Shown here piece after piece: positions 679-63,620 of a stretch of 64,000 nucleotides of DNA. The DNA comes from Bacillota bacterium (GTDB lineage: Bacteria; Bacillota; Clostridia; Christensenellales; UBA1242), in NCBI GenBank assembly GCA_009780065.1, contig WRAS01000002.1, forward strand, positions 73,916 to 137,915. Reading direction: 5' to 3'. The translations under genes and the position numbers were made by a program. Position 1 is the first letter of the stretch; each line of letters starts with the position of its first letter. The notes beneath the pieces were generated by a model. That model ran no database searches and was not told the origin of the DNA. It was given only the letters and a program-made list of their open reading frames with translations.

Positions 679-1365
679 TTAAAATGTTCCAATTAAAATC
701 AAAATAACCAGATGCAAAGGGTAAAAGATATAAAATGACCATCGTTCAATCTTTGATATTTTCAGTTTTTTGTCAATAAATATCAACAGAAAAACAGACG
801 ATAGCATTGAATACCATTGGATACTTTCAAAGCCACGCACTATCATCAATATATTGAAAATTGCAATAATGGCCACAACGGATAATTTCCAATATAACTT
901 ATCCCACAAAACTAAATAGAACATTATTATCAGCAGAACACCAGATAAACCATAATCAAAACGAAATACATCAGCAATTAAAAGCAAGCACAAAATACCA
1001 ACAGTACAACAGGTCATAATTAGGGGCGCGGCAGTCTTTTTGCTGTGTTCAACAATTATTTTTATTAAGATAATTGATAAAACACCTGCCGACAAGGTAA
1101 AAAATACGTTAAGCCATTGCCAACGAATCTCCCATAATGCAAGCGATATTAAAAGTTGCGATACCAATGCAAAAACAAATAATCTTACAAAAAAATTCCT
1201 TGCATTGCGTGTCTTGGTACAGCCATATGCAACAAGAAAACAAAATATTGGAAAAGCGATTCTGCCTATTATTCTTAACCATATTGTGTCTGGAAATAAA
1301 TAATATCCTATATGATCAACCAACATAGAAAGCACTGCAATAATCTTAATTGTCCGCGAATTCAC
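679..1365 (-). CDS. TraX family integral membrane protein
   Basis: The N-terminus IKIIAVLSMLVDHIGYYLF and the polytopic hydrophobic profile are typical of the TraX family. Confidence 0.75.
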   Translation of the reverse strand: MNSRTIKIIAVLSMLVDHIGYYLFPDTIWLRIIGRIAFPIFCFLVAYGCTKTRNARNFFVRLFVFALVSQLLISLALWEIRWQWLNVFFTLSAGVLSIILIKIIVEHSKKTAAPLIMTCCTVGILCLLLIADVFRFDYGLSGVLLIIMFYLVLWDKLYWKLSVVAIIAIFNILMIVRGFESIQWYSMLSSVFLLIFIDKKLKISKIERWSFYIFYPLHLVILILIGTF

Positions 1366-2170: not shown

Positions 2171-2902
2171 TTACTTTTTCTTTGCTACTGGTTTTTTTGC
2201 TGGTGCCTTTGTCGCCGCTTTTGTTTTTGCAACTGTTGGCTTGTCGGCTGGCTTTGGTGTTACGCCTGTTTGTTTTGCAACTTCTGCGGCGAAATCCTGT
2301 TCTTTCTTTTCCAATCCCTCGCCCATTTCAAATCTTACGAAACGACGGATAGTAATTTTCTCGCCAATGCGCGCCACGACGTCGCTGACAACCTCTTTGA
2401 TTGTTTTTGCCGGGTCTTTCACGAATTCCTGGTGTACAAGACAAATGTCTTTGTAGTATTTCTTCACACGGCCTTCCACCATTTTTTCTACAACAGCAAC
2501 TGGCTTACCTTCGTTAAGTGCCTGTTTTTTCAAGATTTCTTTCTCGGCTTCTAGTTCGCCTGTTGGAACCTGGGTTTCGTCCAAGTATTTTGGGTTTGCA
2601 GCCGCAATGTGCATTGCAATATTTTTTCCAAGTTCTTGAAACTGCTCGCTTTTGGCTGCGAAATCGGTTTCACAGTTAATTTCCACCATAACACCAATCT
2701 TCCCACCCATATGGTTGTACGAGAACACAACACCTTCGCTGTTGATTCGGTCACTGCCCTCTTTTTTTGCTGCCATGGCTTTTCCTTTTTCACGAAGAAG
2801 CGCAACCGCCTTGTCAAAATCACCCTTAGTTTCTTCTAGCGCAGCTTTACAGTCCATTAATCCCGCACCAGTCGTTGTTTTTAACTTCATAATGTCGCTC
2901 AT
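2171..2902 (-). CDS. tsf: translation elongation factor Ts (short form with a Lys/Ala/Pro-rich C-terminal tail)
   Basis: MSDIMKLKTTTGAGLMDCKAALEETKGDFDKAVALLREKG is the canonical EF-Ts UBA-like N-terminus. The gene lies immediately downstream of rpsB. Confidence 0.95.
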   Translation of the reverse strand: MSDIMKLKTTTGAGLMDCKAALEETKGDFDKAVALLREKGKAMAAKKEGSDRINSEGVVFSYNHMGGKIGVMVEINCETDFAAKSEQFQELGKNIAMHIAAANPKYLDETQVPTGELEAEKEILKKQALNEGKPVAVVEKMVEGRVKKYYKDICLVHQEFVKDPAKTIKEVVSDVVARIGEKITIRRFVRFEMGEGLEKKEQDFAAEVAKQTGVTPKPADKPTVAKTKAATKAPAKKPVAKKK

Positions 2903-39391: not shown

Positions 39392-41149
39392 CTATTTTTT
39401 CCTCCTGACTGCTCTGATTATATATGTTCCTGCTATTCTTGGTGTATCAGTAACATCGTACACCAATTTCTCTAACTCTTGCCTTGAATTTTTTATTTTT
39501 TCCAATTCTGCGATTATTTTTGGCATATCCTTGATGTCTTCCATGTCCACAGCAATACCTATTTTATTTCTAAGGGTAATATCTATCGGCTCCATTCCAT
39601 ATTTATCCCAATTTGGATTTAAAACTTTCATAGGCGTATTTATGAATATAGATGGCTTGTTAGTTGCGTATGAAAATTCATAAGCAACAGTGGACCAGTC
39701 CGTAACTAAAATATCTGCGGACAAAATACTCGTCTGGAAATCAAGTTGTAATTTGCTCTTATATTTTGCTTTTATTGCTTTTATCTTTAATGGAAAACGT
39801 TTAATGTATTCAGGGTGAGGTCGCAGCACAATATCATAATCCGTTTTACTCAGTCCCTGCATCAAATCATCCAAGCAAAAATCAAATATATTGTCTTTTT
39901 GCCAACTAGGCGCAATTATAATGGATTTCTTTTCCGTTTTTGCGGGTGGTGTATAATTTGCCCTCATCTCCTCGAAAAGCGGAAATCCAATATTAACTAG
40001 TTCCTTTTCCTTTGAACCATAAAATTTTTCAATTGCACGTAACTCTTCATTATAATTTGGTCCATAACAAAAAACCGTATCATAAAATTTCAATGGGTCT
40101 TGTTTAAGAACCATTGTCAAACTTCCAAACCCGTGGTCTATATACATATAGTTGACATCTTTGACAAGAGACCTTTTATATTGATATTTATGAAAATCTG
40201 GCAACGTCATAACACAAACCTTGCAATCCAATTTCATAAAGACAGAGATCAGTTTGTGCGGACCACAATAATACGCATGAAATCGTTTGTGCTTTATATT
40301 AAAAACTTGGTCATCAAAATCGCTTGTTAAATAATGAATATGAATATTCGAATTTTCCAGTATATTTTCAACCACATGCTTATAATATTTGTAAAATCCA
40401 CTTTTCTCAGAATAAAAGACCAACTCTTTATGTGCCGAATAAAATGCCCTTACGTCTTGTCTTTGTTTTGCCTTTTTACGTCTCCACAATGCCCACCCAA
40501 ACTTTTCAAGCGGCAATATTTCATATTTGACAAGTTTTTTAGGATTATATATCGCATTACATAACAATTGTACCCCTATCGCTGCCAAGTTACCGAAAAT
40601 CCAGAAAACTCCGAATCCTTCACTGCTTATTATCGTGAAATATAATGAAAACGCGGTTAAGAAAATTGCAAAACCCCATTTTGCAAAGAATTTCATTTGC
40701 TTTGCAAGAACGTTACATTTATTTTGTACGTAACACAGGGCAAATGCGGAAAGCGCAGATAATATAGGTAAAATAGGATCGCTCGGCAAGGCATACAGTT
40801 CACTCATACCACCAACTGCACGCATCACGGCAATAATAATCGGTAATTGTAACACAAGCGGAAGTATCGTAGAAATACTGTTATACTTTTCCCTTTTATA
40901 CAATGCCTTCGTCTGTCGTCGTATTGCTCGCCAATCCGCACCACCATAGTTACGAATGTCATCGGTGTATGGTTTAAGGTTTGCAAGTTTAATAGACTCT
41001 GCCTGCGCCCACAGAGACAAAGGGAAAAGAACTATCCTAGTAATAATCGCAAATATAAAAATAGCAAATACATAGTTACTAAAAGCCCCGGCCAACACTT
41101 CTATCAGCCATGCAATCGGATTTGTGATTATGATATCAAATATTCTCAT
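39392..41149 (-). CDS. fusion of a YidC/Oxa1-like insertase domain with a TagB/TagF-type CDP-glycerol glycerophosphotransferase domain
   Basis: N-terminus FAIFIFAIITRIVLFPLSLWAQAESIKLANLKPYTDDI...ILPLVLQLPIIIAVMRAV is YidC-like. C-terminus HPEYIKR...ILVTDWSTVAYEFSYATNKPSIF is TagF-like. Confidence 0.75.
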   Translation of the reverse strand: MRIFDIIITNPIAWLIEVLAGAFSNYVFAIFIFAIITRIVLFPLSLWAQAESIKLANLKPYTDDIRNYGGADWRAIRRQTKALYKREKYNSISTILPLVLQLPIIIAVMRAVGGMSELYALPSDPILPILSALSAFALCYVQNKCNVLAKQMKFFAKWGFAIFLTAFSLYFTIISSEGFGVFWIFGNLAAIGVQLLCNAIYNPKKLVKYEILPLEKFGWALWRRKKAKQRQDVRAFYSAHKELVFYSEKSGFYKYYKHVVENILENSNIHIHYLTSDFDDQVFNIKHKRFHAYYCGPHKLISVFMKLDCKVCVMTLPDFHKYQYKRSLVKDVNYMYIDHGFGSLTMVLKQDPLKFYDTVFCYGPNYNEELRAIEKFYGSKEKELVNIGFPLFEEMRANYTPPAKTEKKSIIIAPSWQKDNIFDFCLDDLMQGLSKTDYDIVLRPHPEYIKRFPLKIKAIKAKYKSKLQLDFQTSILSADILVTDWSTVAYEFSYATNKPSIFINTPMKVLNPNWDKYGMEPIDITLRNKIGIAVDMEDIKDMPKIIAELEKIKNSRQELEKLVYDVTDTPRIAGTYIIRAVRRKK

Positions 41150-41578: not shown

Positions 41579-41965
41579 TCAATCATTCCCCCTATACTCT
41601 GGTTTGTCCCAGTTATTTCCGCACTGAAGCCCAAATTCAATTATATCAGTTAATTCTGCCACTTTATTATTTTTCATCATTGTCAAAAAAGTGAAAATCT
41701 TGTCATTGCAAAACTTGTTCAAAGTTTTCATATCTGCATCAGACAACTGGTCATTTGGACCAGCATGCATATCTTCCACCGGACCATTACGAAAGCAATA
41801 ATGCGTTAGCGCGTGAGAGATTTGCTCAAGCGAATATTTATTTACAATATCCATTCTCTCGAAAAACTTTTCCGTGGTTATACCGCGCTCTGCTGCCATA
41901 AAATCTAAAAATTCGCCCGCTTTCTTTAGTTGTGCAAAATACTTCTCCTTTTCTTTATCAGTCAT
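41579..41965 (-). CDS. small all-alpha protein, CFRNGPxEDxH family (paralog of 53031-53465)
   Basis: HYCFRNGPVEDMHA...LNKFCNDKIFTFL...NWDKPEY aligns with HFCFRNGPIEDIHA...LNKFCVNRIYSFF...DWDKPEF. ATGA overlap with the upstream HEPN-like gene. Confidence 0.6.
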   Translation of the reverse strand: MTDKEKEKYFAQLKKAGEFLDFMAAERGITTEKFFERMDIVNKYSLEQISHALTHYCFRNGPVEDMHAGPNDQLSDADMKTLNKFCNDKIFTFLTMMKNNKVAELTDIIEFGLQCGNNWDKPEYRGND

Positions 41966-42420
41966 TGCCCCTCCTTAGTCATTTTAAAAAATTCATAATC
42001 ATTCTCGTGTTTTTTCCAAATATGCCATACATCGTCATAGGCCTTGAAAAACTTTTGCGACATATCTCTCAACTCTTCAAAGATTTCCATTTCCTTATTC
42101 TTATCCTCCAATTCATCCACACCTAAACCATCAAAACATTCGTGACTTACGTAATTTCTGTTGTCCTTCAAATACTCTAGCAATTCAATTCCTTTATCCG
42201 TAAATACTCCGTATTTCTTTACTTCTTGAATAATCCCCTCAAGTGCAAGCCTTTTTATTTTAGATCTATCCTTGTCAAAAGTTTTCGAGTACCCCATTTC
42301 ATGGCGTATAAAAATCACTCTTTTCAATTTTAATTCAATCTTCTGAGCATGAAACATAGCATGGCCCATCATAGTCAAAATATTTATCGGTACACCTGTC
42401 ATCATTTCTTTCTCTTTCAT
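41962..42420 (-). CDS. small HEPN-like protein (Rx4H motif)
   Basis: LKDNRNYVSHECF contains R-x4-H in an all-alpha ~150 aa protein. The annotated first 12 codons overlap a TTGTTA-18-TATAAT promoter, so the ATG at 42420 is preferred. Confidence 0.55.
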   Translation of the reverse strand: MKEKEMMTGVPINILTMMGHAMFHAQKIELKLKRVIFIRHEMGYSKTFDKDRSKIKRLALEGIIQEVKKYGVFTDKGIELLEYLKDNRNYVSHECFDGLGVDELEDKNKEMEIFEELRDMSQKFFKAYDDVWHIWKKHENDYEFFKMTKEGQ

Positions 42421-42426
42421 GCACAC

Positions 42427-42456
42427 ATTATAACATTCCTCACAATAACTTAACAA
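42427..42456 (-). promoter_or_regulatory. promoter of the HEPN-like/CFRNGP pair (leaderless geometry)
   Basis: On the minus strand: TTGTTA (42456-42451), 18 nt spacer, TATAAT (42432-42427). The ATG follows 7 nt later. Confidence 0.45.
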
Positions 42457-42477: not shown

Positions 42478-43347
42478 CTAAATAACCTTATCCAGTTTTT
42501 TATCTATGTTACCAAATTCTTTCATACAATTTTCTATTAATACTCTATTAATACTTTTGACAGCATCAATACTCTCAGATTCACCAATATCAATTACTCT
42601 CTTATCTGCCCTTTTATATGCAGCCCCTTCATTCAATACACCCTGCATATCAGCATCGTCTATTTCGTAAACAACACACCACTTAGGAGTAAGCGGAAAA
42701 ATTATTTGTCTTTCATTTATCTTAATAACTGGATTATCACTTAAAACAAAATTGGTGTCATCCTTGACATACATGTAACAAACATCAAAATTTGAAAAAA
42801 GATTAATCAATCCCTCCATCGGTGTTGCCACTTCCTTCCCAGATTTTAATGTGCCTGTGAAAATTTGTTGCTTAAAATTGTCATCCACCAATATTTTATC
42901 AATTTCTTTTTCTATCCCCTCAAAGTTACCAAACTTTTCTGTCCACAATTCACAAGCCAAAGCAATCGCTATACCAAAGTTTTTCGTATTATTTTCATAA
43001 ATCCTAGAGTACTGCAAACTGGCAAGTCTATCAACAATCAATGCTTGTTTATTTTTATCCAAAAGATTTATTAATGACTTATACTCCCCTTTTGATTTTG
43101 GATACCCCTTGCCTAGGGTATTAATTATTTTTTTGAAATCAGTTTCATAATTATTGAGAAAATCCTCGATCTCATCGTTACTTCCATCCATATCATAGTA
43201 ATCCCTACCAGACATTTTATGCTCGCTATCTACATAATCGACAAAGTTATTTGCTTTATCAAAATAATAAATTTTTCTATCAGAATCCTCCCACGAACTT
43301 TGTAAAATTCTTGGAACATAATGACAGTTTCTAGTTCTATTTTGCAT
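42478..43347 (-). CDS. DUF4238 domain protein
   Basis: N-terminal NCHYVPRILQSSW matches the HYVPQFYL signature of DUF4238. The GGAG RBS favours the ATG at 43347. Confidence 0.65.
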   Translation of the reverse strand: MQNRTRNCHYVPRILQSSWEDSDRKIYYFDKANNFVDYVDSEHKMSGRDYYDMDGSNDEIEDFLNNYETDFKKIINTLGKGYPKSKGEYKSLINLLDKNKQALIVDRLASLQYSRIYENNTKNFGIAIALACELWTEKFGNFEGIEKEIDKILVDDNFKQQIFTGTLKSGKEVATPMEGLINLFSNFDVCYMYVKDDTNFVLSDNPVIKINERQIIFPLTPKWCVVYEIDDADMQGVLNEGAAYKRADKRVIDIGESESIDAVKSINRVLIENCMKEFGNIDKKLDKVI

Positions 43348-43490
43348 GACATTCATCTCCTTTTTTTGATTCATCAAATTTACCGAACATCTTCTCTACT
43401 ATATCTTGCAACAAACAAGTTAATGTCAACAGCATAATCTTGCTTAATCAACCTCTTTGTCTTTCTGATTTCGTTTTCTACATTCACAAG

Positions 43491-44411
43491 TCAAACACAT
43501 TGCAGCACATTTGCAACTTCTTCCCTTTTCTTGTGCGATGTCAAAATATCAATACAAAGTTTCATAACATTTGAAACATCTCTCATTGCCGACCGAGAAT
43601 CAAAGGAGCCGCTGTACGCAAACGGCTTCATACCCGTATAAGTTCCTTGGTAATCATACAATCTTCTCGAAGATGAATATGATACCTCGTAACCCCTACC
43701 TTCATGCATAAATTTATTTCTGTAATTATAAATACTTTCTAATGACTTTAACCTTTCGCATAACAAGCCATCATCACAAAATGAAGATGCGTATGACTTA
43801 ATTTCATCTAAAAGTCTTTCCTTCTTTTTAACACCAGCGTTTTTAAGGAAAATGGATTCTAACAATGCTGTTAGCACCAAAACTGCCGAGTCAATTTTCT
43901 CTATTGATGCAAATTCATATGCCGTATTAAATAATAATATTGCATTCCTCCACTTGTAAATTAAATTCCGTTTTTCATTGTTAGTATTTATATTGTCCAA
44001 GAAGCATGACTGCTTAAACAACCCAATAAGTTCTGCCGAAAGATGCATGTCTTTCTTAAAACCTTCAGTCCATATGTCTAGAAATGGGGAAAAGTTGAAC
44101 CTATACGAATACCCGTAACTATCTTCAAATGCTTTCGCCGAGCCTTTATAGTAGCATGTGTATGTATTTGCTGGGCGTAGTTTTCTGCCCAAAATACCCC
44201 AGTTTTCTCTTTGCTTATGCCTAAAATCAAGCATTCTGAAAATGGTAAAAACTCCCTCCACAATTCTGCCAGACTCTTCTTCTACTTTGTAATCATTGCT
44301 TTTTATAGTGATGCACAGTATTGGATAATTAAAAAAATTTTTGTCTTTTGCAGTCAATATGTGATCCGTAAGTAAAAGAGCACCTATCTCTTTTTCAAAA
44401 TGTTTCTCCAC
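43491..44411 (-). CDS. Apea-like HEPN domain protein (abortive-infection-like)
   Basis: C-terminal SIYNYRNKFMHEG (R-x4-H followed by E/G) in an alpha-helical domain. Confidence 0.6.
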   Translation of the reverse strand: MEKHFEKEIGALLLTDHILTAKDKNFFNYPILCITIKSNDYKVEEESGRIVEGVFTIFRMLDFRHKQRENWGILGRKLRPANTYTCYYKGSAKAFEDSYGYSYRFNFSPFLDIWTEGFKKDMHLSAELIGLFKQSCFLDNINTNNEKRNLIYKWRNAILLFNTAYEFASIEKIDSAVLVLTALLESIFLKNAGVKKKERLLDEIKSYASSFCDDGLLCERLKSLESIYNYRNKFMHEGRGYEVSYSSSRRLYDYQGTYTGMKPFAYSGSFDSRSAMRDVSNVMKLCIDILTSHKKREEVANVLQCV

Positions 44412-44563: not shown

Positions 44564-45676
44564 TTAATTATTGCCGTCAAATAATTCAATATATTTTTGT
44601 TCGGCATCGTCTGTTAGGTGGGTATAAACCGCCTTTGTCATCCGTGAGCCTTTGGCGTGTCCGCACCATGACTGGGTTGTGAGTTCTTCGACTCCACGTT
44701 CGTGACATCTTGTTATAAACGTGTGCCTTAACTCGTGAATTGTTATGCGAGGAAGTCCATTATCTTTACAAAGTTTTTCAAGCCTTTTTGACAACATAGC
44801 GGAACGATATTTTTGATAGATTCGTTCGTGTGGATCTTTGTCCTTGTGTCGCAACAATAACTCTCTCGTCAACTTGAACATGGGCATTGTGCGTAGACTA
44901 TCGGCATTTTTGACTTGCAAATCATCTGGGTGGGTTTCGTCATAACTTTCATCAATTCGCAACGTGTTTTTTGTAAAGCACAAATCGTTGGGTCTTATGG
45001 CAAGCATTTCACCTTTTCGCAAACCTTGCAAACAACAAATCAATAGTGGCTCGTATTTGTCAAGGTTTCCCATGCAAGCGGATATAAATATCTTTTCATG
45101 GGCTTCGGTGAGTGCTTTTTTCTCATGCTTTGCAACTCGTTTAGGAATTTGGAAATTGCTTGTGGGATTTACTTCGATAAGTCGATTATTGAACGCAACC
45201 AAGAACATTTGTTGTGCAAGGTTGCAGACTGGTATTCTCATGCCCTGTGCGGTGTTCCCATCGTAGATAATTTTGGATAACATCAAACTTGTTATATCGT
45301 TGATAGATATATCGTGCAAAGAATGAAACGGCTTGAATGACTTTATGAAACTGTCTATTGTTGCTTGTCGCACCCTGCCAACCTTGTATGAGTTCAGCCA
45401 CTCGTCAAACCACTCTTTTAATGTGTATGGCTTTTTCGCTTTGCTCTCTGCTCGTTGCATTTGTGCGACTGGAACGTGGATATTCAATTTTTGCAAATAT
45501 CTTTCGGCACTTGCATTTTGCTTTTCCTGTTCCACTCGGTCAACGACTAACTTCAATTTATCGTAGCAATCTAATTTTGTCCTGCCGTAAACCGAAATCA
45601 CCTTTTCGCCAAACCTAACACGTGCAAACCAATTTCCACGAATGTGTTTTCTAATTGTCTTTCCTTGATATGTCAT
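44564..45676 (-). CDS. tyrosine recombinase/integrase
   Basis: Motifs GLRKGEMLAIRPNDL and ITIHELRHTFITRCHERGVEELTTQSWCGHAKGSRMTKAVYTH. Confidence 0.9.
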   Translation of the reverse strand: MTYQGKTIRKHIRGNWFARVRFGEKVISVYGRTKLDCYDKLKLVVDRVEQEKQNASAERYLQKLNIHVPVAQMQRAESKAKKPYTLKEWFDEWLNSYKVGRVRQATIDSFIKSFKPFHSLHDISINDITSLMLSKIIYDGNTAQGMRIPVCNLAQQMFLVAFNNRLIEVNPTSNFQIPKRVAKHEKKALTEAHEKIFISACMGNLDKYEPLLICCLQGLRKGEMLAIRPNDLCFTKNTLRIDESYDETHPDDLQVKNADSLRTMPMFKLTRELLLRHKDKDPHERIYQKYRSAMLSKRLEKLCKDNGLPRITIHELRHTFITRCHERGVEELTTQSWCGHAKGSRMTKAVYTHLTDDAEQKYIELFDGNN

Positions 45677-45841
45677 ATTTTCATTTCAATTTAAGACGCA
45701 GTTTTTGTTTCACACACCTCCTTTTTTTTGTGAGTTTCTCACTACAACAGTATACCATCTTTAGGCGTCGCAGGCAAGGGCAAAAATCGTTCGACAAATT
45801 ATTCACTTCCCAATTTCGCCAAAATACGCTACATTATTTAT

Positions 45842-47101
45842 GTGAGTGAAAATGACAAAGATGTAAACCCATACGGCAAAGGGAGCAGGGGCAAATTCAC
45901 TATTGCCAACCCTTTTATAACCGATGAGATGAAATTGATTATTGTGGACTTGGATAACTTGACTGACGAACAAAAAGCCATGCCACGACAAGCACATGAC
46001 TGGTCTTTTGCCAAACAGCCACACCTTGCACATTTCTTTGTTTTCCACTGGTGCGAATACACAAAGAACGCCGTGCCTAATGACGAGTCAACTGCATTTC
46101 AAACAATCGGTGAACGTGCATTTTTTGTTGATTACGAGTCCGCACAAAATTATTTCAAATACCTACATGAAAATCACTTTGTCGAGTATGTTTGCTTTCA
46201 ATATGAAAAGGGCGATAAAACTGGACTCCTGCACCTGCAAGGTTTCATGCGATATAAAAAGATTATGTTCCCAAACAAGGTGCGTGTAATTTTCCCAACC
46301 ATGTCATTAAAACAATGTGGTATGCAATCTAATCAAGAGTGCCGTGCCTATTGTTGCAAAGAGGAAACAAAGGTTGACGGCTTTGACTTTTTCGAGTGGG
46401 GCAATTTCACCAAGATAGGACAACGCAACGACCTTGTGCGACTTATCCAAGCCATTAAAGATGATATGCCATATGAACAACTGCTTGAAAATTTCCCATA
46501 TCAAATGATGAACATGGGTGACAAGGTTGAAAAAACTCGGCAAAATCTTATCCGTGAAAAATTCAAAAATGTTGAACGTGAAATACACGTCACATATATT
46601 TATGGTGTAGAGGGAACGGGAAAAACGACATTCCCATATCGTGTGTTGGGTTTACAATATCAAGATGTATTCAAAGTTTCCAACTATAAACATAGTGGGA
46701 AATATGATAATTACAAGTGCCAAGACGTTATCCTGTTTGACGAATTTCACGGACAAATTGATATAACCGAAATGAACGATATGCTTAATGGTCAGCCGTA
46801 TGACTTCCCATGCCGTTATAACGATAGGTCGGCTTGTTTTACCAAAGCAATTTTCACGTCAAACTATCCAATGGAAGAGGCTTATAAAAATGAAATCGAC
46901 AAAGGCAAAATGCGTTCTTTCAAGGGGTTTCAACGCAGGGTCACGGAAATTATTTATATGCCCGAACGTAATCACTATATATGGCAACTGGGTAGACCAA
47001 GTGACGAAATCATAGACAATTTGAAATCGCAAGGTGCTAAAATTAAATTGCCCCCACAAGAAATTACACAGGGCGAAATTGACATTGCGGAGGTGTTTTA
47101 A
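45842..47101 (+). CDS. replication initiator: HUH endonuclease plus SF3 helicase (CRESS-DNA-virus/pCRESS-plasmid-type Rep)
   Basis: Motif II GLLHLQGF, motif III ECRAYCCKE, Walker A YGVEGTGKTT, Walker B VILFDEF, motif C FTSN. Overall collinear with circovirus Rep. GTG start. Confidence 0.85.
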   Translation: MSENDKDVNPYGKGSRGKFTIANPFITDEMKLIIVDLDNLTDEQKAMPRQAHDWSFAKQPHLAHFFVFHWCEYTKNAVPNDESTAFQTIGERAFFVDYESAQNYFKYLHENHFVEYVCFQYEKGDKTGLLHLQGFMRYKKIMFPNKVRVIFPTMSLKQCGMQSNQECRAYCCKEETKVDGFDFFEWGNFTKIGQRNDLVRLIQAIKDDMPYEQLLENFPYQMMNMGDKVEKTRQNLIREKFKNVEREIHVTYIYGVEGTGKTTFPYRVLGLQYQDVFKVSNYKHSGKYDNYKCQDVILFDEFHGQIDITEMNDMLNGQPYDFPCRYNDRSACFTKAIFTSNYPMEEAYKNEIDKGKMRSFKGFQRRVTEIIYMPERNHYIWQLGRPSDEIIDNLKSQGAKIKLPPQEITQGEIDIAEVF

Positions 47102-47760
47102 TGGACAACATGAAATTGATAATTCTCAAAGACGATAGATTCAAAAAAGTGCTTGACGGCTCTATGTCCGTTTGGCTCACTCTAAACGATGACTTTGCAA
47201 AGTCAATAGAAATTGACGAGGTGTTGCGTGTTCTTAACGACAACACAAACGAAACTTGCTATATCCGTTGTGTTGGCTTTCACGTCTATTCGTCATTCGA
47301 GGAACTCTATAACAAGGTTGACAAAAACACTCTCGGTTATGACGGAACGGACAAGGAAAATATTGCTCTAATCAAAGACCAAATGTTTTGTCAATGTTCG
47401 CCCGAACAAGAAAAAAAATATGGTGTGCGTGGGATAATTTTTGAATACAATCCCGAATATAAAACCATAGCAGAAATGACAGAGGAAGAGGGGCAAGCCT
47501 TTCTTAAAAAAATATTCTCTACACTAAAAAAAGAACAAAACACATTATATCGTGCCATGCAAAAAGCAGACGAAACCGCACACGGACTCACGGAACTAGT
47601 CAAGGTAAGTCCACCATTTTATTTTGCAAGCACTGACGAGGCAAACAACGACAACCTAAAACATGAATTGAATTACACAATCGGCAAATTACAAGACCTA
47701 CTTGACACTATTCAAGACTGGGAAAACAAATTAAAATTCCCCACATCAAAAAAGTATTGA
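47101..47760 (+). CDS. ASCH-like domain protein with a helical C-terminal half
   Basis: The N-terminus IILKDDRFKKVLDGSMSVWLTLND...IRCVGFHVYSSFEELY resembles ASCH/PUA-like domains. Overlaps the Rep stop codon. Confidence 0.45.
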   Translation: MDNMKLIILKDDRFKKVLDGSMSVWLTLNDDFAKSIEIDEVLRVLNDNTNETCYIRCVGFHVYSSFEELYNKVDKNTLGYDGTDKENIALIKDQMFCQCSPEQEKKYGVRGIIFEYNPEYKTIAEMTEEEGQAFLKKIFSTLKKEQNTLYRAMQKADETAHGLTELVKVSPPFYFASTDEANNDNLKHELNYTIGKLQDLLDTIQDWENKLKFPTSKKY

Positions 47761-51450: not shown

Positions 51451-52375
51451 CTAACTTTCCAATTTTCGGCGCATTTTCAGCAATCCTAACGACAATGCAG
51501 TAATTGAATCATTTTTCTCCAACCTCAAGCGCGAGGAATTGAACTCTAACAATTTCGAATTTCTCGATGACATAAAATTTGCGTCGACGATTATATTAAA
51601 CACTACAATAGTTACAAAGCACATCGCACCCTCAAAAACAAAACTTCCAACCAGTTCTATGCCGAACATCTGGATGGGAGTTGCTAACGGACAGTCCTTT
51701 AAGATATGGTATAAGACTTATTACCACGTCAAACAAAATGTTGCCGCAGTTCTCAGCCGTTACTATCAAGTACTCTTGGTCAAAAATGATTGTCTTCGGC
51801 ACGCTTCCGTAAAACTTGAATGACCTATCCATTGCTTCCACAAACGCTTTTGTTGCAAACGGTTCGTGTCTAACTTCGAAGTACTTTTGCCTACTGAACA
51901 TCAACACGATCGCATAAAAGTAAACTTTCACTTTCTCGCCAAACATGTCACGCAATGTTATCTCACCAAAGTCTACCTGAGCCCACTCTCCTGGTTTGGT
52001 GTCGCCCACCGCCTCAAACTCGCGCTTACGCTGTTCGAGCGCCAACCCAGCATGTTCCTCCCGCAACTTGTTCATGTATCTATAAAACGCGCTAACACTT
52101 GGCTTAAAACTTTCATCTTGTGCCCTGATTTTGTCAAGTAAGATACTATTCCTTGTCCTCGGGTTTTTCTCCAATTCATCAAGCAGGAACTTCCGCCACC
52201 GCTCGATTTCGTCATTTCTTCTGCCCGAATCTGCATCGCGGAATTCATCCTCAGTGTAGTCCCAATATTTCCTAACACTCCACTGTTTGAGCCCACTCGC
52301 CTTAACTGCTTGCTGCCTACTCAGTCCCTCGTCTTTCAATCTCTGTATCAAAATGTAATCTTTAAATTTTATCAT
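51451..52375 (-). pseudogene. decayed DDE (IS21/rve-like) transposase
   Basis: HTH QRLKDEGLSRQQAVKASGL. DDE-core segment GEWAQVDFGEITL...YFYAIVLMFSRQKYF...TIIFDQE. The reading frame then breaks (51632-51669) and only a short out-of-frame ORF continues. Confidence 0.55.
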
Positions 52376-52508
52376 TTTTTGTTTCTCCTTTTTCAATGTC
52401 GAAACAAAAATCAAAAAATCATTCTGCAGCGCTTTTATCTTTCTCGTTCCACCTCCTTCTAAAAACGGGAGCACTCGCCCCCGCATAAAGTTTAACATTA
52501 ATTTGCAA

Positions 52509-53012
52509 TCATTGAAAAGCTGTATCGGGATAATCTTGTCCCACTTGTGACGGTGTAAATTGCTTTACAACTCCATCGTCGCTCACCGAAAAAATGTGAA
52601 TGCATAATGTCATGGCGATTTGCCGTGGGATTCGACGCAACGCAACTTTCGCCGCAATCCATGGTAATCCCAATCCGTACTTATACGCATGATTTGTCGT
52701 CCCTTTGTTCGCACCACTTTGAATAGTTCGCGGTGTGTTCATACGAGTGACCAACTGACCAAGAGCATGAATCCATCCCTCTTTGTTTGACGATCGCGCT
52801 GCCGATGGCGCTTCTGACTTTCCTTTGCATTCAATTATAAACTTTTCACTCTTTCTATTCCCGCCAATCAGAATTAAATCCGCTCCACGTCCACGTAGCC
52901 CTGCTTCTCTTGCCAGATCTTCATGCCAATTGCCGCGCTCTTTTGCGATAAGAAAATCACGCACGCGTTTTACAACTTCAGTTTCCGTTAATCTCAAGTG
53001 TTCAAATTCCAT
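52509..53012 (-). CDS. PD-(D/E)xK-type nuclease-like protein
   Basis: GADLILIGGNRKSEKFIIECKGK gives a D...E-x-K arrangement on a beta-strand pattern. It starts 18 nt downstream of the CFRNGP-family gene. Confidence 0.5.
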   Translation of the reverse strand: MEFEHLRLTETEVVKRVRDFLIAKERGNWHEDLAREAGLRGRGADLILIGGNRKSEKFIIECKGKSEAPSAARSSNKEGWIHALGQLVTRMNTPRTIQSGANKGTTNHAYKYGLGLPWIAAKVALRRIPRQIAMTLCIHIFSVSDDGVVKQFTPSQVGQDYPDTAFQ

Positions 53013-53030
53013 GAGTGATTATAGCATGCA

Positions 53031-53465
53031 TTACTGTACTTTCTCTTCAAATTCATCAGAGTTCATACTGTTTATAAGTTTGCAAACTTGAGCATTTGTC
53101 ATTTGCGCAAATTCGCCAGCATCAAACTCAGGCTTGTCCCAATCCGTGCCAGCCATCATAATCCCAGCTTGAACTATCGACCTAAGCCTATCAGTGTCAC
53201 CATCTTCTATTAGTTTGAAAAAACTATAAATCCTGTTCACGCAAAATTTATTCAGCTCCTCCATTCTCGCTTCGGTAAGCCTCTGCCCTTTGGCATGAAT
53301 GTCCTCGATTGGACCGTTTCTGAAACAAAAATGTGCCAAGCCAAAGGCTACATTTTCCAATCCGAACTCTTTGAATATTGTTGAGTTTTTAACCGCTGCG
53401 GAAATCTCTACTTTGTATTCATTATTAAGCCTCTCCATTACTTTTGCAAAAAGGTCCTCTCGCAT
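53031..53465 (-). CDS. small all-alpha protein, CFRNGPxEDxH family (paralog of 41579-41965)
   Basis: See the alignment given for 41579-41965. By eye, roughly 40-45 percent identity over ~80 aa. Confidence 0.6.
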   Translation of the reverse strand: MREDLFAKVMERLNNEYKVEISAAVKNSTIFKEFGLENVAFGLAHFCFRNGPIEDIHAKGQRLTEARMEELNKFCVNRIYSFFKLIEDGDTDRLRSIVQAGIMMAGTDWDKPEFDAGEFAQMTNAQVCKLINSMNSDEFEEKVQ

Positions 53466-53669: not shown

Positions 53670-55136
53670 CTAGACTTCACCTAGATTTGTCGCAAGAATT
53701 GCATCACTCATAAGCTTAACCTTAATTTCTATGATTTTATTAAAATCAAACTGATAGTCATTAAATATTGATGACAGAATGATTTGATGATCGCTGAAAT
53801 CATCTTTTAAGATATTCATCATTGCGGATATGTTTTCATCGTCCACCTCACTCCCCTTCGGGGAGTCTAGGATTATTGGCAACTTAAGCTCTGTGACCAT
53901 AGCTATCTCTTTTATGTATGCCATCTTAAATGCAAAAACCAATTTGTGCAAAATTGCACCAGATAACCCAGCCAGTTCTCTTGTGAATATGTATTTTTCT
54001 TTCTTTTCTACTATTTCATTCAAGCCTAATTGCTCAGCATACTTAAGGACATCTGTGTGGATACGCATTATCGACTCATTATCTTTTCTAGTCAGCTCTT
54101 CAATTTGAGTATTGATATCCCTTTTCTCCTGCTCCAGTTTTTTCAGTATATTCTCGACAGCTCTAGCGTCTATCTCCATATTGGAAACGTCGCGATCGAA
54201 TTTCTCAACTATTTCTTTTACATCCCACAACAAGTTTGTTTCCTTACGTTTAAGCGAAAGATTTTTTATTTGGCCTTTAATTTCACTTAATTCTGCCAAC
54301 TTAATATTCTTACGCGCAAGCGTCAATTGAGTATTGTCAGGACTCCCTTTAATGGTGTTCTCTGTAACTGGTATCTCAATTCCGTCGCTGTTTACAACCA
54401 CTATTCTAGCACCTGCAATATACTTCACGAACGAGTTGTTTTGCCGTATTATTGAGTCTATCTGCCCAATCTCACGCTCTAATGCATTCCTCTTATAAAA
54501 CAGTCCGTTAAGCGCTCTTTCCAACTCCTCGTTATAAGTTAGTCCATCATCTGTCATGATTTCTCTACTAACTTGCTTTTTGTACTCTGCAATATTAAAC
54601 ATGGTTTTGTATCGATGGATTTGTTTTGATAAGGCGTCTCTTCTGTCTATCAATGAGTCGCAATTCTTTTTTGCCAAGCCTCGCATCAGCTCTTCTATGT
54701 TCAGTTTAATTTTACCTATTACCGTTCCTCGATTGAGCAACGTCCAGCCTTTCTCTTGATCAAAATAAAACGATCCAAGCAAATTCTTTGTGATGTTTTT
54801 GTCGCTAATTCCATAAATGACATTCAACAAATCCTCGTTTTCAACTGGCAGAGTAAAAATGGTCTCTTTACCATCGCTTCTCAAAGTTAATATGTTTGCA
54901 CTTCGGAACAGGTGCATTTGTCTTTGATTTACATTGACTTCAAGTCCTGTTTGGAACTTATCAATCTTTATACCTTTGGTCATTGGGATCGGATATCCAA
55001 GCGCATATAGCATAAAGCGAAGAAGCGTTGTCTTGCCTCTTGAATTTTTGTCACTAAAAATCAGATTGCTCTTTTCGTCGAATGCAATTTCTTTTTTAAA
55101 CAGCCCTTCTGTGATTGTTAGTTTTTTAAATATCAT
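53670..55136 (-). CDS. SMC/ABC-type ATPase with a coiled-coil insert (LmuB/DUF3732- or DUF2326-like)
   Basis: Walker A SDKNSRGKTTLLRF, long heptad-rich middle, Walker B/D-loop LPIILDSPKGSEVDDEN. Confidence 0.75.
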   Translation of the reverse strand: MIFKKLTITEGLFKKEIAFDEKSNLIFSDKNSRGKTTLLRFMLYALGYPIPMTKGIKIDKFQTGLEVNVNQRQMHLFRSANILTLRSDGKETIFTLPVENEDLLNVIYGISDKNITKNLLGSFYFDQEKGWTLLNRGTVIGKIKLNIEELMRGLAKKNCDSLIDRRDALSKQIHRYKTMFNIAEYKKQVSREIMTDDGLTYNEELERALNGLFYKRNALEREIGQIDSIIRQNNSFVKYIAGARIVVVNSDGIEIPVTENTIKGSPDNTQLTLARKNIKLAELSEIKGQIKNLSLKRKETNLLWDVKEIVEKFDRDVSNMEIDARAVENILKKLEQEKRDINTQIEELTRKDNESIMRIHTDVLKYAEQLGLNEIVEKKEKYIFTRELAGLSGAILHKLVFAFKMAYIKEIAMVTELKLPIILDSPKGSEVDDENISAMMNILKDDFSDHQIILSSIFNDYQFDFNKIIEIKVKLMSDAILATNLGEV

Positions 55137-56156
55137 TTATAACCCCGCATACGCCTTAAGTTTCTTTATATCAGTCCTTTTAATTAAAATTTGGTTTATT
55201 ACTATTTTCTTCACTATTTCTTTCACTGCGCCATCTTCGCCGCTAATTGAATCAAATGCGTCGTCATACTTTTCGTAGCTATTAGTAACAAAAGTTTTAA
55301 TCTGCTGGTTTGCAGCTAGTTGATGCTTACTTATATATTCGTCATAATCATTTATAACTCTGGTCACTAATTGAAAGTCGAGTGATGCAAAGTCAATAAG
55401 GCTTCTAAACTTTGACATAGCTGCCTCGATTATCCCTTCATCCTTTTCGTCTCTTAACCATTGTGGAGCATCTCCACCACAATACAAGACCACTATTGGC
55501 CATAGAAATGCCTCCTTGGTTACAGTCGCAATTCTTTTAGATGCGTTTATTCTCAACATATTTTGCCAAACACTCATCACTGTCGGCGTTAGTCCGCTAT
55601 CGCTTTTCCCAATTGCTGCAAACAACTCGTTTATGATTACTTTTATTTCTTTATACCTCTCTGCGTCTTCCTGACCTTCGAAGGGTATGACTAAGATATA
55701 AAAGTCATCATAAGCAAAATTGGTTATGTCTTGATCGTTGACCGCATTCCTGACAACCGCTTGTTCGACTGGTGTTAATTCTGAAAATGGTTTCGATGTT
55801 AATCCATTTATTGAGTTTTCCATTGGGTTTGTTATCTTAAATGGAGATTTTGAATTTGTTATGTAAGTTAGCTTGGCGGTGGCTGAATCGTTCGTTTTGG
55901 CTGCGTTCAAAGTATTAACAGCGTCTTTTAATTTTTGGATTACATTCCTTGTATCTGTGCTTGTCTCAACCGCTTTTGCTTGAGCGTAAATTTTCTTCTT
56001 ATTTGTCAATCCAATTTCGATGTCTTCATGTGCTGATTCATTCTTTACATACGATGATTCTTTCAGATTTTTGACAAACAAGAAAATAGCAGCATTAGCT
56101 TGAAAATCTCTGCCGAATTCTCCAACCGTATCTTGACTGCTCTTTTTTTGTTTCAA
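55137..56156 (-). CDS. Cap4/DUF4297-like nuclease-domain protein (LmuA-like effector)
   Basis: N-terminus GEFGRDFQANAAIFLF...ESAHEDIEIGL...KIYAQAKA fits the G.xGfxYQ...E.xEDi...QxK pattern of the Cap4 dsDNA nuclease domain. TTG start overlaps the Type ISP stop; its own stop abuts the ATPase ATG. Confidence 0.55.
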   Translation of the reverse strand: MKQKKSSQDTVGEFGRDFQANAAIFLFVKNLKESSYVKNESAHEDIEIGLTNKKKIYAQAKAVETSTDTRNVIQKLKDAVNTLNAAKTNDSATAKLTYITNSKSPFKITNPMENSINGLTSKPFSELTPVEQAVVRNAVNDQDITNFAYDDFYILVIPFEGQEDAERYKEIKVIINELFAAIGKSDSGLTPTVMSVWQNMLRINASKRIATVTKEAFLWPIVVLYCGGDAPQWLRDEKDEGIIEAAMSKFRSLIDFASLDFQLVTRVINDYDEYISKHQLAANQQIKTFVTNSYEKYDDAFDSISGEDGAVKEIVKKIVINQILIKRTDIKKLKAYAGL

Positions 56157-59100
56157 TTTGCACTCCTTTCATCAAACGATATATCAGGTAGATTTGCCAC
56201 TATTTTTTGTGTTTCTAAGCTGACAGCAATGACTGACAACAATAAATCCAAAACATAACTTGGTTTACCACTTTCTTCCGCATAAAGGTTTGGATCATTT
56301 ACGATCCCACTTGCTTTATCTGTTTTGATTTGGTAACGCTCCATTATCCACTCGATTGCCGATTTGCCATTTACAACATAGTTATATGCTTCCAGTGATA
56401 TATTCTCGATTGTGATCGCGCCGTTAAAAACGATTTTGCTCTTGTCTGTCTTTGTTGGGAAACGCATTTTTTCAACACGCAACTTGGATTTATCACCTTT
56501 GACGGTGACGTTTTTTGGTGCAGGTACATTTTCGTAATTCAAATGCAATTCTGCTAACTCACGACCTGCTTTTGAAAATGCCCAAAATTCAACATCCTTC
56601 TCAACCAATGGAATACGTGGTAACGACTTTTTCAAATCAACGGCAAATGCTTCACGATATTTTGGACTGTGCAATAATCCGTAAACGTAATAGAAAATAT
56701 CCTCCCGTGTGACTTTGTTGCCGTATCGTTTTTGTGCTTCGCCCCAAATAAAATCGCTTATACCATTGTGGCGAATATACTGTTCATCAATGTTCGTGAA
56801 CATATCAATCTGCCCGCTCTTGTTAACTTTTTCGTAGTAGTATAGTGGAAACCCCTGACCACCACCAACATAACCCCTATCTGCAATTCTATCAGTTATT
56901 AAAGATGAGAACCCAGTTGTACTTGAAAGACCATTAACGTAAATAAGCAAATTCTTCGCATCTCTATGCGGAAATGCGTTATCGTTACGATAACGCCTTT
57001 CTATCAAGTTGGCACCATGATAGAAAGGCATTTTCATAAATGGACGATATAGTCCCGTTGATAAAGAATTCTTATCATATGAAAGTCTTATACCTTTACT
57101 ATGAAAATCGAGGAAAGGGCGAGTCCAATTTATCTGTGTAGAATCAAACACCACTTCCCTATCGATAGAATTATTATAAAACCCAATGGTCTTATTTGTA
57201 TTGCTTTCAACACGCTTTTTTGAGTAGTTCCAAACAAAGGAATCCCGACCACTGACCATACCGAGCGAAGTCATAACAAAGAAACTTTGTGTTGTCTTAT
57301 CAAATTTCTTTTCACTTGCCAATGGAATTAAAGTATCGAATTCGTCATTTCTATCAACAATCCAGTCGCCATATTCGTTTGGAGTGAGTTTGTTTAGTAC
57401 TAATCCTCTATTTGAAAATGACTTTGCATTTTTAATAATTTCAAGTTTTTGTTCACGCGTAAGGTAATCACCAATATCATTATAAAATATTTCGGCCTTG
57501 CCTCTAAAACCTTTTTTCTTTACTAGCAACGTAATGGACACAGGTGTACGTGAGCCACTTCCGAATATCTTGCCACCTTCCTTGCGGCTTAATTCACCGC
57601 TTGTTCTTTGATTTCCACGCAAGTTGAAAACAAATATTTTGGAAAACTCTTGTTCAATACTTTTTCTAAATCCTTCTGATGCCATGCCGTCAATCCAGGT
57701 GCCGTTTGAAACATAACAAACAATGCCATTGTTGTCACCAAGTCTGTCAGTTGCATAACGGAATGCACGAATATAGCTGTCGTATAATGAGTTCTTGTTT
57801 ACTGCGGTTGACAACTTTGCATAAGTACTTTCTATTGCCGCGTCCAGCTTTGGGTAGTCGTTATTCTGTGCATCATCATTAGCCGACTTTTGCCCTACCG
57901 AATATGGCGGGTTTCCGAATATCACAGTTAACGGTGCGGAGTTTTGACGTTTGACTGTACGTGTGTTTTTTCCAAGCAAACGTGTTTCGGCTTTTGATTC
58001 CTCGAATGCTTGAAATGTGTCTGTTAATGCTATCCCATCAAATGGTTTGTATTCACTTGCACTAATTTCATCGTGAAAACAGTTTTCAATATTCACGCAA
58101 GCGATATAGTAAGCAAGCAACACAAGTTCGTTTGCAAATAATTCTTTTTCGTACTTTCGTGGCAGGTTGTCTTTGTCGATCAAACCACTTTGAATAAGGC
58201 GAGTTATAAAAGTTCCCGTACCCGTGAATGGATCAAGTATATTTACATTCTCGTCAGCAAGTTTACGTCCAAATTCGGCTTGCAAAACATCGTTAACGGA
58301 ATGAATAATAAAATCTACGATTTCAACTGGTGTATATACAATACCAAGCATTTGCGTAAGTTTTGGGAACGCAAATTGAAAGAAATTATTATACAGCTCA
58401 ATTATGACGGCTTGGCGTCCGTGACTGTCAAGATCTTTACAAGTTCGTTTGACATACTCATAGAACTTTTGTAATTCCTCAGTATCCTCATCAATATTTG
58501 TCGCCCTGTTTTCAAGACGTTTACCTTTGTCTTTTAATTCATCCAAAATTTTGCTCATGGCTACAGACACTGTATTCTTTTTAGCAAACTCATAATTTTC
58601 AAACAACGCAGAGAATATTGGCGCGGTAATTATATGTTGCGCCAACATTTCAACAGCACGCGTTCGATCTATACTTGCATCAATAGAAATTTGCATTTCC
58701 TTCAAGAATGAATTGAATATCTTTTTTGTATCCTCATAGTTGTCTATATAACCGTTAACGTTTTTGATTTGCTGTTCGGCAATTTCGGCTATAGACCTTG
58801 CCCATTGTTCCCAATATCGGCGACTGCCAACTTTTAACACAAGTTTTGCGTAAATAACACTTTGCAACTCGGCAAAACTCTCCATATGAATTTGCTCGTA
58901 ACGTTTTTGAATAGGATTGCCATCGCTATCAAATGAAGTGTCACTTGTGCAAATAAGAATTGAATCAGGACGTTTTGATTTATTCAGTTCGATTTTGTTA
59001 ACTGTTGCGTCAAAACGGTCATCGTGAGCGCGCAACGCATTTAACACCGACCATACGACTTGATAATTTGCATTATTCGCAAGTGCTTCTTCTGGCGCTA

Positions 59101-63259: not shown

Positions 63260-63620
63260 TGGTGGAAGCGGTGGGAGTTGAACCCACGTCCGAATGGTTG
63301 TCTGTTTAAGTTTCTACATGCTTAGTCTCATGGATTTTACAATCTAGTGACCATCATGGACATTGGTCGTAGAAGGTGTGGAATTATTAGGGTAAACATC
63401 CAATCCACAAATGGATAATTACCGCGCGTACTTTGTTTGACCCCATCAAAGTATAAAGTACGAAAACTTTAATGGAGATGCCTTGTTACCTAATAAAATT
63501 AAGCAGCAAGAGCGTAAGGTGCTGGTTTTGCACTTAAAATTTATTGCAAAGTTTTACGCCATTCACAAAGGCGGCATGCTTGTTAAACCCTTCCCCACCC
63601 GTCGAAGCCATTTCGCCCCC
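63260..63620 (-). ncRNA. ssrA: tmRNA (transfer-messenger RNA)
   Basis: On the minus strand, the 5' end reads GGGGGCGAAATGGCTTCGACGGG and the 3' end GGACGTGGGTTCAACTCCCACCGCTTCCACCA. The tag ORF ends GCA AAA CCA GCA CCT TAC GCT CTT GCT GCT TAA (…AKPAPYALAA). Confidence 0.9.

Follow-up and report, generated by a model that had tools for sequence, protein, structure and literature searches.

Organization of the locus

The window, that is the whole stretch of 64,000 nucleotides that was analysed, has a low GC content and contains Gram-positive cell-wall genes. On its minus strand lie two small genes, here called A and B, which share an ATGA sequence formed by the stop codon of A and the start codon of B (Table 1). 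Both open reading frames, with the motifs quoted for them in the original prediction, are present as it described them. A ribosome-binding site for B can be read in the 3′ end of A, which suggests translational coupling, and the two genes have the layout of a type II toxin–antitoxin (TA) system, since they are small, co-directional and overlapping, with the Shine–Dalgarno (SD) sequence of B inside A. The locus was found again in three other public assemblies, in each case as an identical copy. A and B were not found as a conserved unit elsewhere, the homologs of B having other partners or none, and conservation as a pair cannot be demonstrated because A is an orphan.

The pair closes a block of four genes, X306–DUF4238–A–B, preceded by a tyrosine integrase from which a rep gene diverges; the context is thus that of a mobile element. 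Strong single-gene protection against T7 has been reported for a DUF4238 protein encoded in a P2 hotspot (bioRxiv 10.1101/2021.01.21.427644). A member of the X306 family is also present next to a further B-family pair, that of locus L102 (40% identity, E = 3e-59). Further along the window, a paralog of B, here called B2, is found 204 nt downstream of the PDC-M46B/A genes (E = 5e-163 and 9e-79; PADLOC), with a Type ISP restriction enzyme also upstream of it, and a tmRNA gene closes the region. With DUF4238, the integrase, PDC-M46A/B and Type ISP as neighbours, both loci sit within a defence island. A search for att repeats that would delimit the island by linking the 3′ end of the tmRNA gene, or the spacer downstream of B, to another site returned nothing convincing.

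Table 1. Position of the genes and signals discussed, numbered from the first nucleotide of the window
Feature	Position	Strand	Size or type	Remarks
Gene B	41579..41965	−	128 aa	Short form of the FRNGPxEDxH domain, an unnamed family; start overlaps the stop of A
Gene A	41962..42420	−	152 aa, from ATG 42420	Orphan; predicted all-helical; RNYVSH (Rx4H); candidate HEPN-type effector
Ribosome-binding site of B	41970..41976	−	AAGGAGG	Within the 3′ end of A
Promoter-like site upstream of A	42427..42456	−	TTGTTA-18-TATAAT plus TG extension	Ends 6 nt before ATG 42420
DUF4238 gene	42478..43377	−	PF14022, E = 9e-18	Directly upstream of A, gap ~57 nt
X306 gene	43491..44411	−	306 aa	RNKFMH (Rx4H) motif
Tyrosine integrase gene	44564..45676	−	Phage_integrase, E = 1.2e-11	Upstream of the four-gene block
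Gene C	52509..53012	−	167 aa, basic (pI 9.65)	D45...E61-C-K63, PD-(D/E)xK-type motif; 18 nt downstream of B2
Gene B2	53031..53465	−	144 aa, acidic (pI 4.9)	B paralog: HFCFRNGPIEDIHA...LNKFC...DWDKPEF
PDC-M46B/A genes	53670..56156			Upstream of B2
tmRNA gene	63260..63620			Closes the region

Gene A as a candidate HEPN-type effector

The full open reading frame of A covers 41962–42456 on the minus strand and corresponds to 164 residues when counted from TTG 42456. Likelier starts are ATG 42420, which gives the 152-residue form of the protein databases, and GTG 42426, which gives the 154-residue form of the other assemblies. Between 0.007 and 0.02 chance open reading frames of such a length are expected per window, so that A is not a chance reading frame. 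It had been proposed that A has its own leaderless promoter. Indeed, the promoter-like site listed in Table 1 ends so close to ATG 42420 that a leaderless transcript is plausible; however, such sites show no excess in the region, where 17 were counted versus 16.4 in shuffled sequence, and the promoter assignment is to be read with this in mind.

The description of A as HEPN-like was weakened. In its favour, the RNYVSH motif (residues 88–93 of the 152-residue form) fits the Rx4-6H pattern of HEPN domains, and the protein is predicted to be helical. Its best Pfam match is DUF4145, a recognised HEPN family tied to restriction–modification systems (Anantharaman et al. 2013, PMC3710099), and the alignment covers residues 71–118 (numbering of the 164-residue form), including the motif. 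On the other side, this match is sub-threshold (E = 0.075, 13.5 bits versus a cutoff of 23.1), and homologs are missing, since A itself was the sole match among 5.8 billion proteins. In PHROGs, phrog_12893, to which no function is assigned, matches A at E = 0.0027. A sequence search of the PDB with A gave nothing useful, and the families of PADLOC-DB v2 match none of A, B, B2 and the protein encoded next to B2, called C. The single-sequence AF2 model of A is all-helical and of low confidence (pLDDT 65, pTM 0.37), and with this poor model as query no fold match at E < 1 was obtained by Foldseek against the PDB. A is therefore treated here as a putative HEPN-type RNase.

Protein B defines an unnamed domain family

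The core of B reads HYCFRNGPVEDMHA...LNKFC...NWDKPEY. Its positions are unequally constrained across 112 diverse family members: G61 is invariant, conservation reaches 90% or more at F58, R59, P62, E64, H67, M79, L82, N83, W119 and D120, and N60 and D65 remain below 90%. The two cysteines are conserved only within the close subfamily of B, so that the invariant Cys initially described does not extend to the whole family. Within the short-form subfamily, the entropy amounts to 1.4–1.8 bits at residues 1–40 and to 0.4–0.6 bits at residues 51–100. The AF2 model of B (pLDDT 78) is a helical bundle, in which the motif occupies a loop (residues 61–75) between helices 4 and 5. Being polar and conserved, this loop might just as well have a catalytic role.

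The view that the family corresponds to no named domain was borne out. Neither B nor B2 has a match in Pfam, NCBIfam, PADLOC or PHROGs; the fold of B has none in the PDB or BFVD, and its sequence none among PDB sequences. A literature search for ‘FRNGP’ produced a single match, which was irrelevant.

A few affiliations were considered and discarded. Detectable homology with Panacea (DUF4065), evoked by the ‘GPV’ loop of B, was rejected because PF13274 is matched by neither B, B2 nor the 112 family members at E ≤ 1 and because the PDB and BFVD contain no matching fold. A Fic/Doc-like motif and a degenerate HEPN domain were likewise rejected, the motif of B not aligning with either (R-x7-H spacing) and profile and fold searches giving no matches. 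A role as a DNA-mimic anti-restriction protein was judged unlikely for a protein that is only mildly acidic (pI 5.2) and whose family is nearly absent from phages and plasmids.

Size, distribution and architectures of the B family

When 1.84 billion representatives were searched exhaustively with a profile, 672 B-family clusters (50% identity) were obtained at E ≤ 1e-3 and 243 proteins at E ≤ 1e-10; a word-indexed search recovered only 32 clusters. Nearly all of the 80 genome loci of the family belong to Bacillota. Matches were absent from 50,697 phage records and from 72,556 plasmids, and amounted to only two among the 2.9 million contigs of IMG/VR.

Besides the short form represented by B, a long form exists in which an N-terminal extension of ~55–105 residues precedes the B domain. 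It accounts for 102 of the 168 matches among the loci collected and is also the usual architecture in the 80 genome loci. The extension shows weak Pfam matches to helix–turn–helix (HTH) domains (HTH_23, Sigma70_r4, HTH_7). Long forms are mostly solitary, 219 of their 301 flanking open reading frames being singletons, and a large serine recombinase is the sole recurrent neighbour in the survey of their flanks. Tight neighbours of long forms include Sua5, DegV, YlmH, CotE, a response regulator and an AIR-synthase-like protein. Most loci of the close relatives of B and of the fusions, on the other hand, adjoin known defence genes. Taken as a whole, the family consists mostly of HTH-fused, solitary members close to housekeeping genes. 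The B family is real, unnamed and, in the defence context, modular.

Partner swapping around close homologs of B

The proposal that partners are swapped around one conserved small protein holds for the close relatives of B (43–86% identity), the partners of which include an HNH nuclease and a GNAT protein. These homologs mostly stand each against a different gene, with a 269-residue family recurring in two loci (L099 and L102). In the window, the partner is the HEPN-like A, located upstream of B with an overlap of 4 nt. Other upstream partners are a 299-residue HNH protein (PADLOC ZorE-type HNH, E = 1e-10) at a gap of 9 nt in L091 (P0002) and a GNAT protein (Acetyltransf_1, 23.8 bits versus a cutoff of 20.7) at a gap of 114 nt in L001 (P0014). 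Downstream partners comprise a 221-residue protein in L094 (P0005, gap 1), a 180-residue coiled-coil protein in L097 (P0011, gap 1), where an OLD/Gabija-like ATPase and an SNF2/PLD protein adjoin, the 269-residue family in L099 and L102 (P0017 and P0021, gap 2–4), with Fic and RT genes nearby in L099, and a 288-residue protein containing DUF1801 in L012 (P0012, overlap 4). The association is looser in L189 (P0024), where BREX-type genes lie alongside, and in L190 (P0009), where the B homolog follows, at a gap of 66, what a by-eye reading takes for the C-terminal end of a putative HsdR. Examples of close homologs without a tight partner are those of L011 and L190 as well as P0029. Altogether, the B domain has at least seven kinds of partners, to which GNAT-like, zinc-ribbon and HTH fusions are to be added.

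Tightly linked partners that are unrelated to each other occur among B proteins that are 59–86% identical. At gaps of at most 9 nt, the SD sequence of the second gene lies inside the 3′ end of the first one in L091, L094, L097, L099 and L102. A tight flank is present in 7 of 10 non-redundant close-homolog loci versus 0.34 expected (P ~0.02, from crude gene calls), which is a modest enrichment. L001 and L094 share the rlmN–rsgA hotspot and differ in the cargo around B. Among the neighbours of B and B2 in the window, A, C, DUF4238 and PDC-M46A/B recur in none of the 90 other B-family loci, and X306 alone does so (L102 and L103).

Recurrent pairing and fusions

Some associations recur with B proteins of different architecture. 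Genes of the 221-residue family precede a long-form B gene in L054 and follow a short-form one in L094 and L122. In L132, a long-form B gene is preceded, at a distance of 10 nt, by the gene of a second protein with a HEPN motif (RNHFIH, Rx4H).

In other cases, the B domain is part of a larger polypeptide. P0142 and P0168 consist of a B domain followed by a C-terminal GNAT-like module, P0168 being WP_153402929.1, which is named GNAT family N-acetyltransferase at NCBI, and P0046 has the reverse order, with the GNAT-like module ahead of the B domain. Homologs of the fused module exist as separate proteins, namely the downstream neighbour of B in L017 (E = 6e-14) and, with weak similarity, the GNAT of L001 (E = 9e-4). 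These GNAT-like modules are divergent, their best PDB sequence matches being arylalkylamine N-acetyltransferases at E ~0.1. B is also fused with a zinc-ribbon module (P0080 and P0119), with a common domain of ~110 residues (P0089 and P0178) and with a MerR-type HTH (P0137). Judged from sequence, fusions with modules homologous to unfused neighbours would be hard to explain without functional coupling.

The paralog B2 and its neighbour C

The presence of a clear paralog of B 11 kb away is confirmed, B and B2 being 40% identical over 86 residues (E = 2e-26). Downstream of B2 lies C, the family of which exceeds 318 clusters. Among 21 homologs of C, no exchange is seen at D45, E61 and K63, in agreement with a D...(D/E)xK motif. 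C has no match in Pfam, PADLOC or NCBIfam, nor among PDB sequences whether the single protein or a profile is used as query. A TGcTATAAT site is found 5 nt before its ATG, an arrangement similar to that of A, and in the two contexts sampled, the homologs of C are solitary, their neighbours being AAA_21/DUF4276 or ApeA_NTD1 genes and a B gene being absent from the vicinity. Given this promoter-like site and these solitary homologs, B2 and C may be two separate units rather than a pair. One of the two sampled contexts is indexed in 194 blocks of the collection.

Comparison with known systems

Conserved control domains that, by fusion or adjacency, work with interchangeable effectors and HTH outputs have precedents. 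CARF- and SAVED-type sensors combine with HTH, HEPN and PD-(D/E)xK outputs, and CapRel-type proteins are fused toxin–antitoxins. As a candidate control domain, B shares this general organization; however, it is homologous to none of them, is much smaller and has no signal-generating enzyme nearby, and a sensing role for B is hypothetical. In the TacAT and AtaRT systems, GNAT toxins are paired with antitoxins of the RHH-DUF1778 type. Likewise, L001 and L017 combine a GNAT-fold protein and a small partner as a two-gene unit, but the partner is B and not RHH-DUF1778, the GNAT-like modules are divergent and single-polypeptide fusions exist.

As regards A, the HEPN toxin systems (HEPN-MNT TA pairs, and DUF4145-type HEPN proteins encoded in restriction or abortive-infection loci; PMC3710099) offer the nearest comparison, A being small, predicted to be helical and equipped with an Rx4H motif in a defence island. 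It differs from them in that its partner B is not a minimal nucleotidyltransferase, in that the DUF4145 match is sub-threshold and in that A has no homologs.

For B, the resemblance is to Panacea, the antitoxin domain of PanA (DUF4065, PF13274; Kurata et al. 2022, PMC8832971), where one small and mainly helical domain is likewise associated with many unrelated toxins or effectors. In Panacea antitoxins, the gene order varies, an N-terminal HTH is present in 343 members and some members lie outside TA-like loci (PMC8832971); the B family shows the same variable order, frequent N-terminal HTH and occurrence outside TA-like loci. The differences concern distribution, the B family being nearly restricted to Bacillota and nearly absent from phages and plasmids while Panacea is broadly distributed, as well as sequence, since B homologs stay 67–86% identical while their partners change. 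Moreover, neutralisation by B is putative only.

Proposed function of the A–B pair

In the reading tentatively preferred here, modular conflict systems have B as their conserved component, Panacea-like yet unrelated to Panacea, with a controlling or neutralising role, and A is an effector of the HEPN type that B restrains. A–B would then be a translationally coupled two-gene conflict module, carried as cargo beside the integrase in the defence island. A would act as the effector, most likely as a HEPN-type RNase, and B would be the conserved non-effector partner that binds and neutralises it in the manner of an antitoxin. The variable N-terminal helix of B (approximately residues 1–40) would provide partner specificity, its place being taken by the HTH in the long form, and the near-invariant core (H-x-x-F-R-N-G-P-x-E-D-x-H loop, LNK helix and WD tail) would serve one common task. 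The core might, for this task, bind one and the same trigger, ligand or host factor, by which the activity of the partner would be released or set, with the conserved loop as the presumed binding site. The module may defend against phages or stabilise the island. The gene overlap with its internal SD sequence, the swapping and recurrence of partners, the fusions, the unequal conservation of B, the defence genes nearby and the parallel with Panacea were counted in favour of this reading, as were the acidic character of B and B2 and the basic character of C.

The degree of conservation of B complicates the picture. As B proteins that are 67–86% identical have unrelated partners, a specific protein–protein neutralisation is hard to reconcile with the data, and the high identity maintained despite partner change agrees with a role that is generic and does not depend on the partner, or with mere co-location. 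In addition, a simple toxin–antitoxin reading is weakened by the orphan status of A, the independent-looking C and the mostly solitary long form. A wider formulation is possible, and is offered with caution: FRNGPxEDxH may be a second hyperpromiscuous control domain of the Panacea kind, unrelated to Panacea itself and specific to Bacillota, the nearly invariant core of which would read a common signal or host factor and the exchangeable N-terminal module of which (partner-binding helix or HTH) would couple this signal to HEPN, HNH, GNAT, PD-(D/E)xK-like or other effectors, or to transcription. Modular TA or anti-phage systems with this domain would then constitute a new family.

Other explanations were considered. 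One of them, regarded as rather unlikely, takes the B core for a sensor of a ligand or trigger, so that HTH-fused forms would be one-component transcription factors and enzyme-linked forms on/off switches responding to a common signal. This would account for a core that is nearly invariant whatever the partner and for B proteins up to 86% identical next to unrelated genes, for enzyme fusions in which the B domain comes either first or last and for the fact that C does without B; moreover, HTH plus B, alone among ordinary genes, is the commonest architecture and is typical of one-component regulators. Yet, the surroundings of the loci examined contain no signal-producing enzyme (cyclase or type III CRISPR), the B domain is small, all-helical and without a demonstrated pocket, it has no structural relative among the known sensor domains of the PDB and BFVD, and the HTH assignment leans on weak Pfam matches. 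Alternatively, B could be an independent single-gene unit, such as a small regulator or accessory factor, that gathers in variable hotspots, where most of its neighbours would be further cargo of the island, with neither A–B nor B2–C forming a functional pair. That neighbours differ at one hotspot (rlmN–rsgA, L001 versus L094), that C is solitary elsewhere and has its own promoter-like site, that several B genes have no tight partner, that the partners seen in the window recur in 0 of 90 other loci and that the enrichment in tight linkage is only modest would all follow. This explanation is considered unlikely in view of the ATGA overlap and the internal SD sites, seen in five or more loci, of the recurrence of one partner family with divergent B proteins and of the fusions with modules homologous to unfused neighbours.

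The idea that B is itself an enzyme or a toxin, with the His/Glu/Asp/His loop as a metal or catalytic site and the neighbours as regulators, targeting subunits or immunity proteins, is in line with the catalytic look of the cluster noted in the original prediction. Conservation of the polar motif across 112 diverse members speaks for it, and the toxin can be the conserved half of a swapping pair. However, effector motifs are present and intact in the partners themselves (HNH, GNAT, Rx4H, D...ExK), B is acidic, no enzyme fold resembles it, and a protein that is often solitary, HTH-fused and close to housekeeping genes is an unlikely toxin; the idea is accordingly given very little credence.

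Implications

How many more domains of the Panacea kind exist was asked in the Panacea study (PMC8832971). Should B be a control domain, it would be among the very few known to govern many unrelated effectors, and if this holds, the family would be a handle for finding new toxins or defence effectors of Bacillota by guilt by association. Candidate effector families already seen are the 221-, 269- and 180-residue families, ‘FWIEY’ and X306. The near-invariant loop of B is a target for mutagenesis and could reveal which signal or host factor the modules read. If B turned out to be an ordinary solitary regulator, an unnamed family of ~670 clusters with HTH fusions would still be new to the catalogue.

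Genomic settings of the B family

Proteins of the B family (FRNGPxEDxH motif) occur at a chromosomal hotspot and at the borders of integrated DNA. A single hotspot, flanked by an RlmN-like radical-SAM gene and rsgA, is occupied in both L001 and L094, and the B gene is kept there while the surrounding cargo differs. Genes for the long form, in which an N-terminal HTH precedes the B domain, often come directly after a large serine recombinase of ~520 aa, which lies ~100 nt upstream in L029, L060, L066, L067, L074, L078 and L087, and they face two small convergent genes (74–141 aa); this arrangement puts them at the edge of an integrated element.

Coordinates of features in the window and in homolog loci
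Feature	Location	Strand	Remarks
585-aa ORF	39392-41149	-	60KD_IMP (YidC-type insertase) and CDP-glycerol glycerophosphotransferase domains
Extended -10, A	42427-42456		
DUF4238 protein	42478-43377	-	immediately upstream of A
X306	43491-44411	-	306 aa; RNKFMH motif
Integrase/Rep region	44564-47760		tyrosine integrase diverging from Rep protein and 219-aa ORF
288-aa ORF	51632-52498	-	10 nt downstream of C; sub-threshold rve integrase-core match
Extended -10, C	53013-53026		
PDC-M46B, PDC-M46A, Type ISP	53670-60961	-	
tmRNA gene	63260-63620	-	far end of region
Hotspot, L001	5248-6387		GNAT-B
Hotspot, L094	5001-9300		B-221-607-184-153 (221, the 221-aa partner family)
X306 homolog, L102	6405-7721		438 aa
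Extended -10, L189	~2775-2795		
Extended -10, L190	~555-572, ~1035-1053		

A possible element carrying A and B

The candidate HEPN-type gene A and its partner B lie near a region whose Rep protein combines Viral_Rep and RNA_helicase domains; this region looks like a small integrative element with the X306-DUF4238-A-B block as cargo. X306 gave no match in Pfam. Its homolog in L102 (40% identity, E = 3e-59) has ~140 N-terminal residues that are missing from the window protein, and in both L102 and L103 the homolog is the next gene downstream of a different B-family pair. This makes two instances in which the X306 and B families occur together. Strong T7 resistance has been reported for a DUF4238 protein of a P2 prophage hotspot (bioRxiv 10.1101/2021.01.21.427644); PADLOC v2 gave no match for the window DUF4238 protein.

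The C family and a possible tmRNA-side island

The family of C, the nuclease-motif gene next to the B paralog, has an invariant D...ECK motif and >318 clusters, and no Pfam model. In gut Clostridia (L105-L113), its genes occur alone, adjoining AAA_21/DUF4276 or ApeA_NTD1 genes, and the family may represent a defence-island nuclease that acts independently. The ORF following C is probably the remnant of an IS transposase. Further along, PDC-M46B (E = 5e-163) and PDC-M46A (E = 9e-79) form a candidate Lamassu-like system adjoining a 1602-aa Type ISP restriction-modification enzyme. Since a tmRNA gene stands at the far end, the region may be an ssrA-side defence island; a search of the window for an att repeat there found none.

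Promoter-like sites

An extended -10 (TGnTATAAT or similar), placed 5–9 nt ahead of the ATG and without a Shine-Dalgarno sequence, recurs at the first genes of the island units, both in the window (A and C) and in homolog loci, a pattern which suggests that leaderless transcripts are common among these gut Bacillota.

The insertase ORF

The 585-aa ORF joins its two domains in an unusual fusion, and its start is overlapped by a 128-aa ORF.
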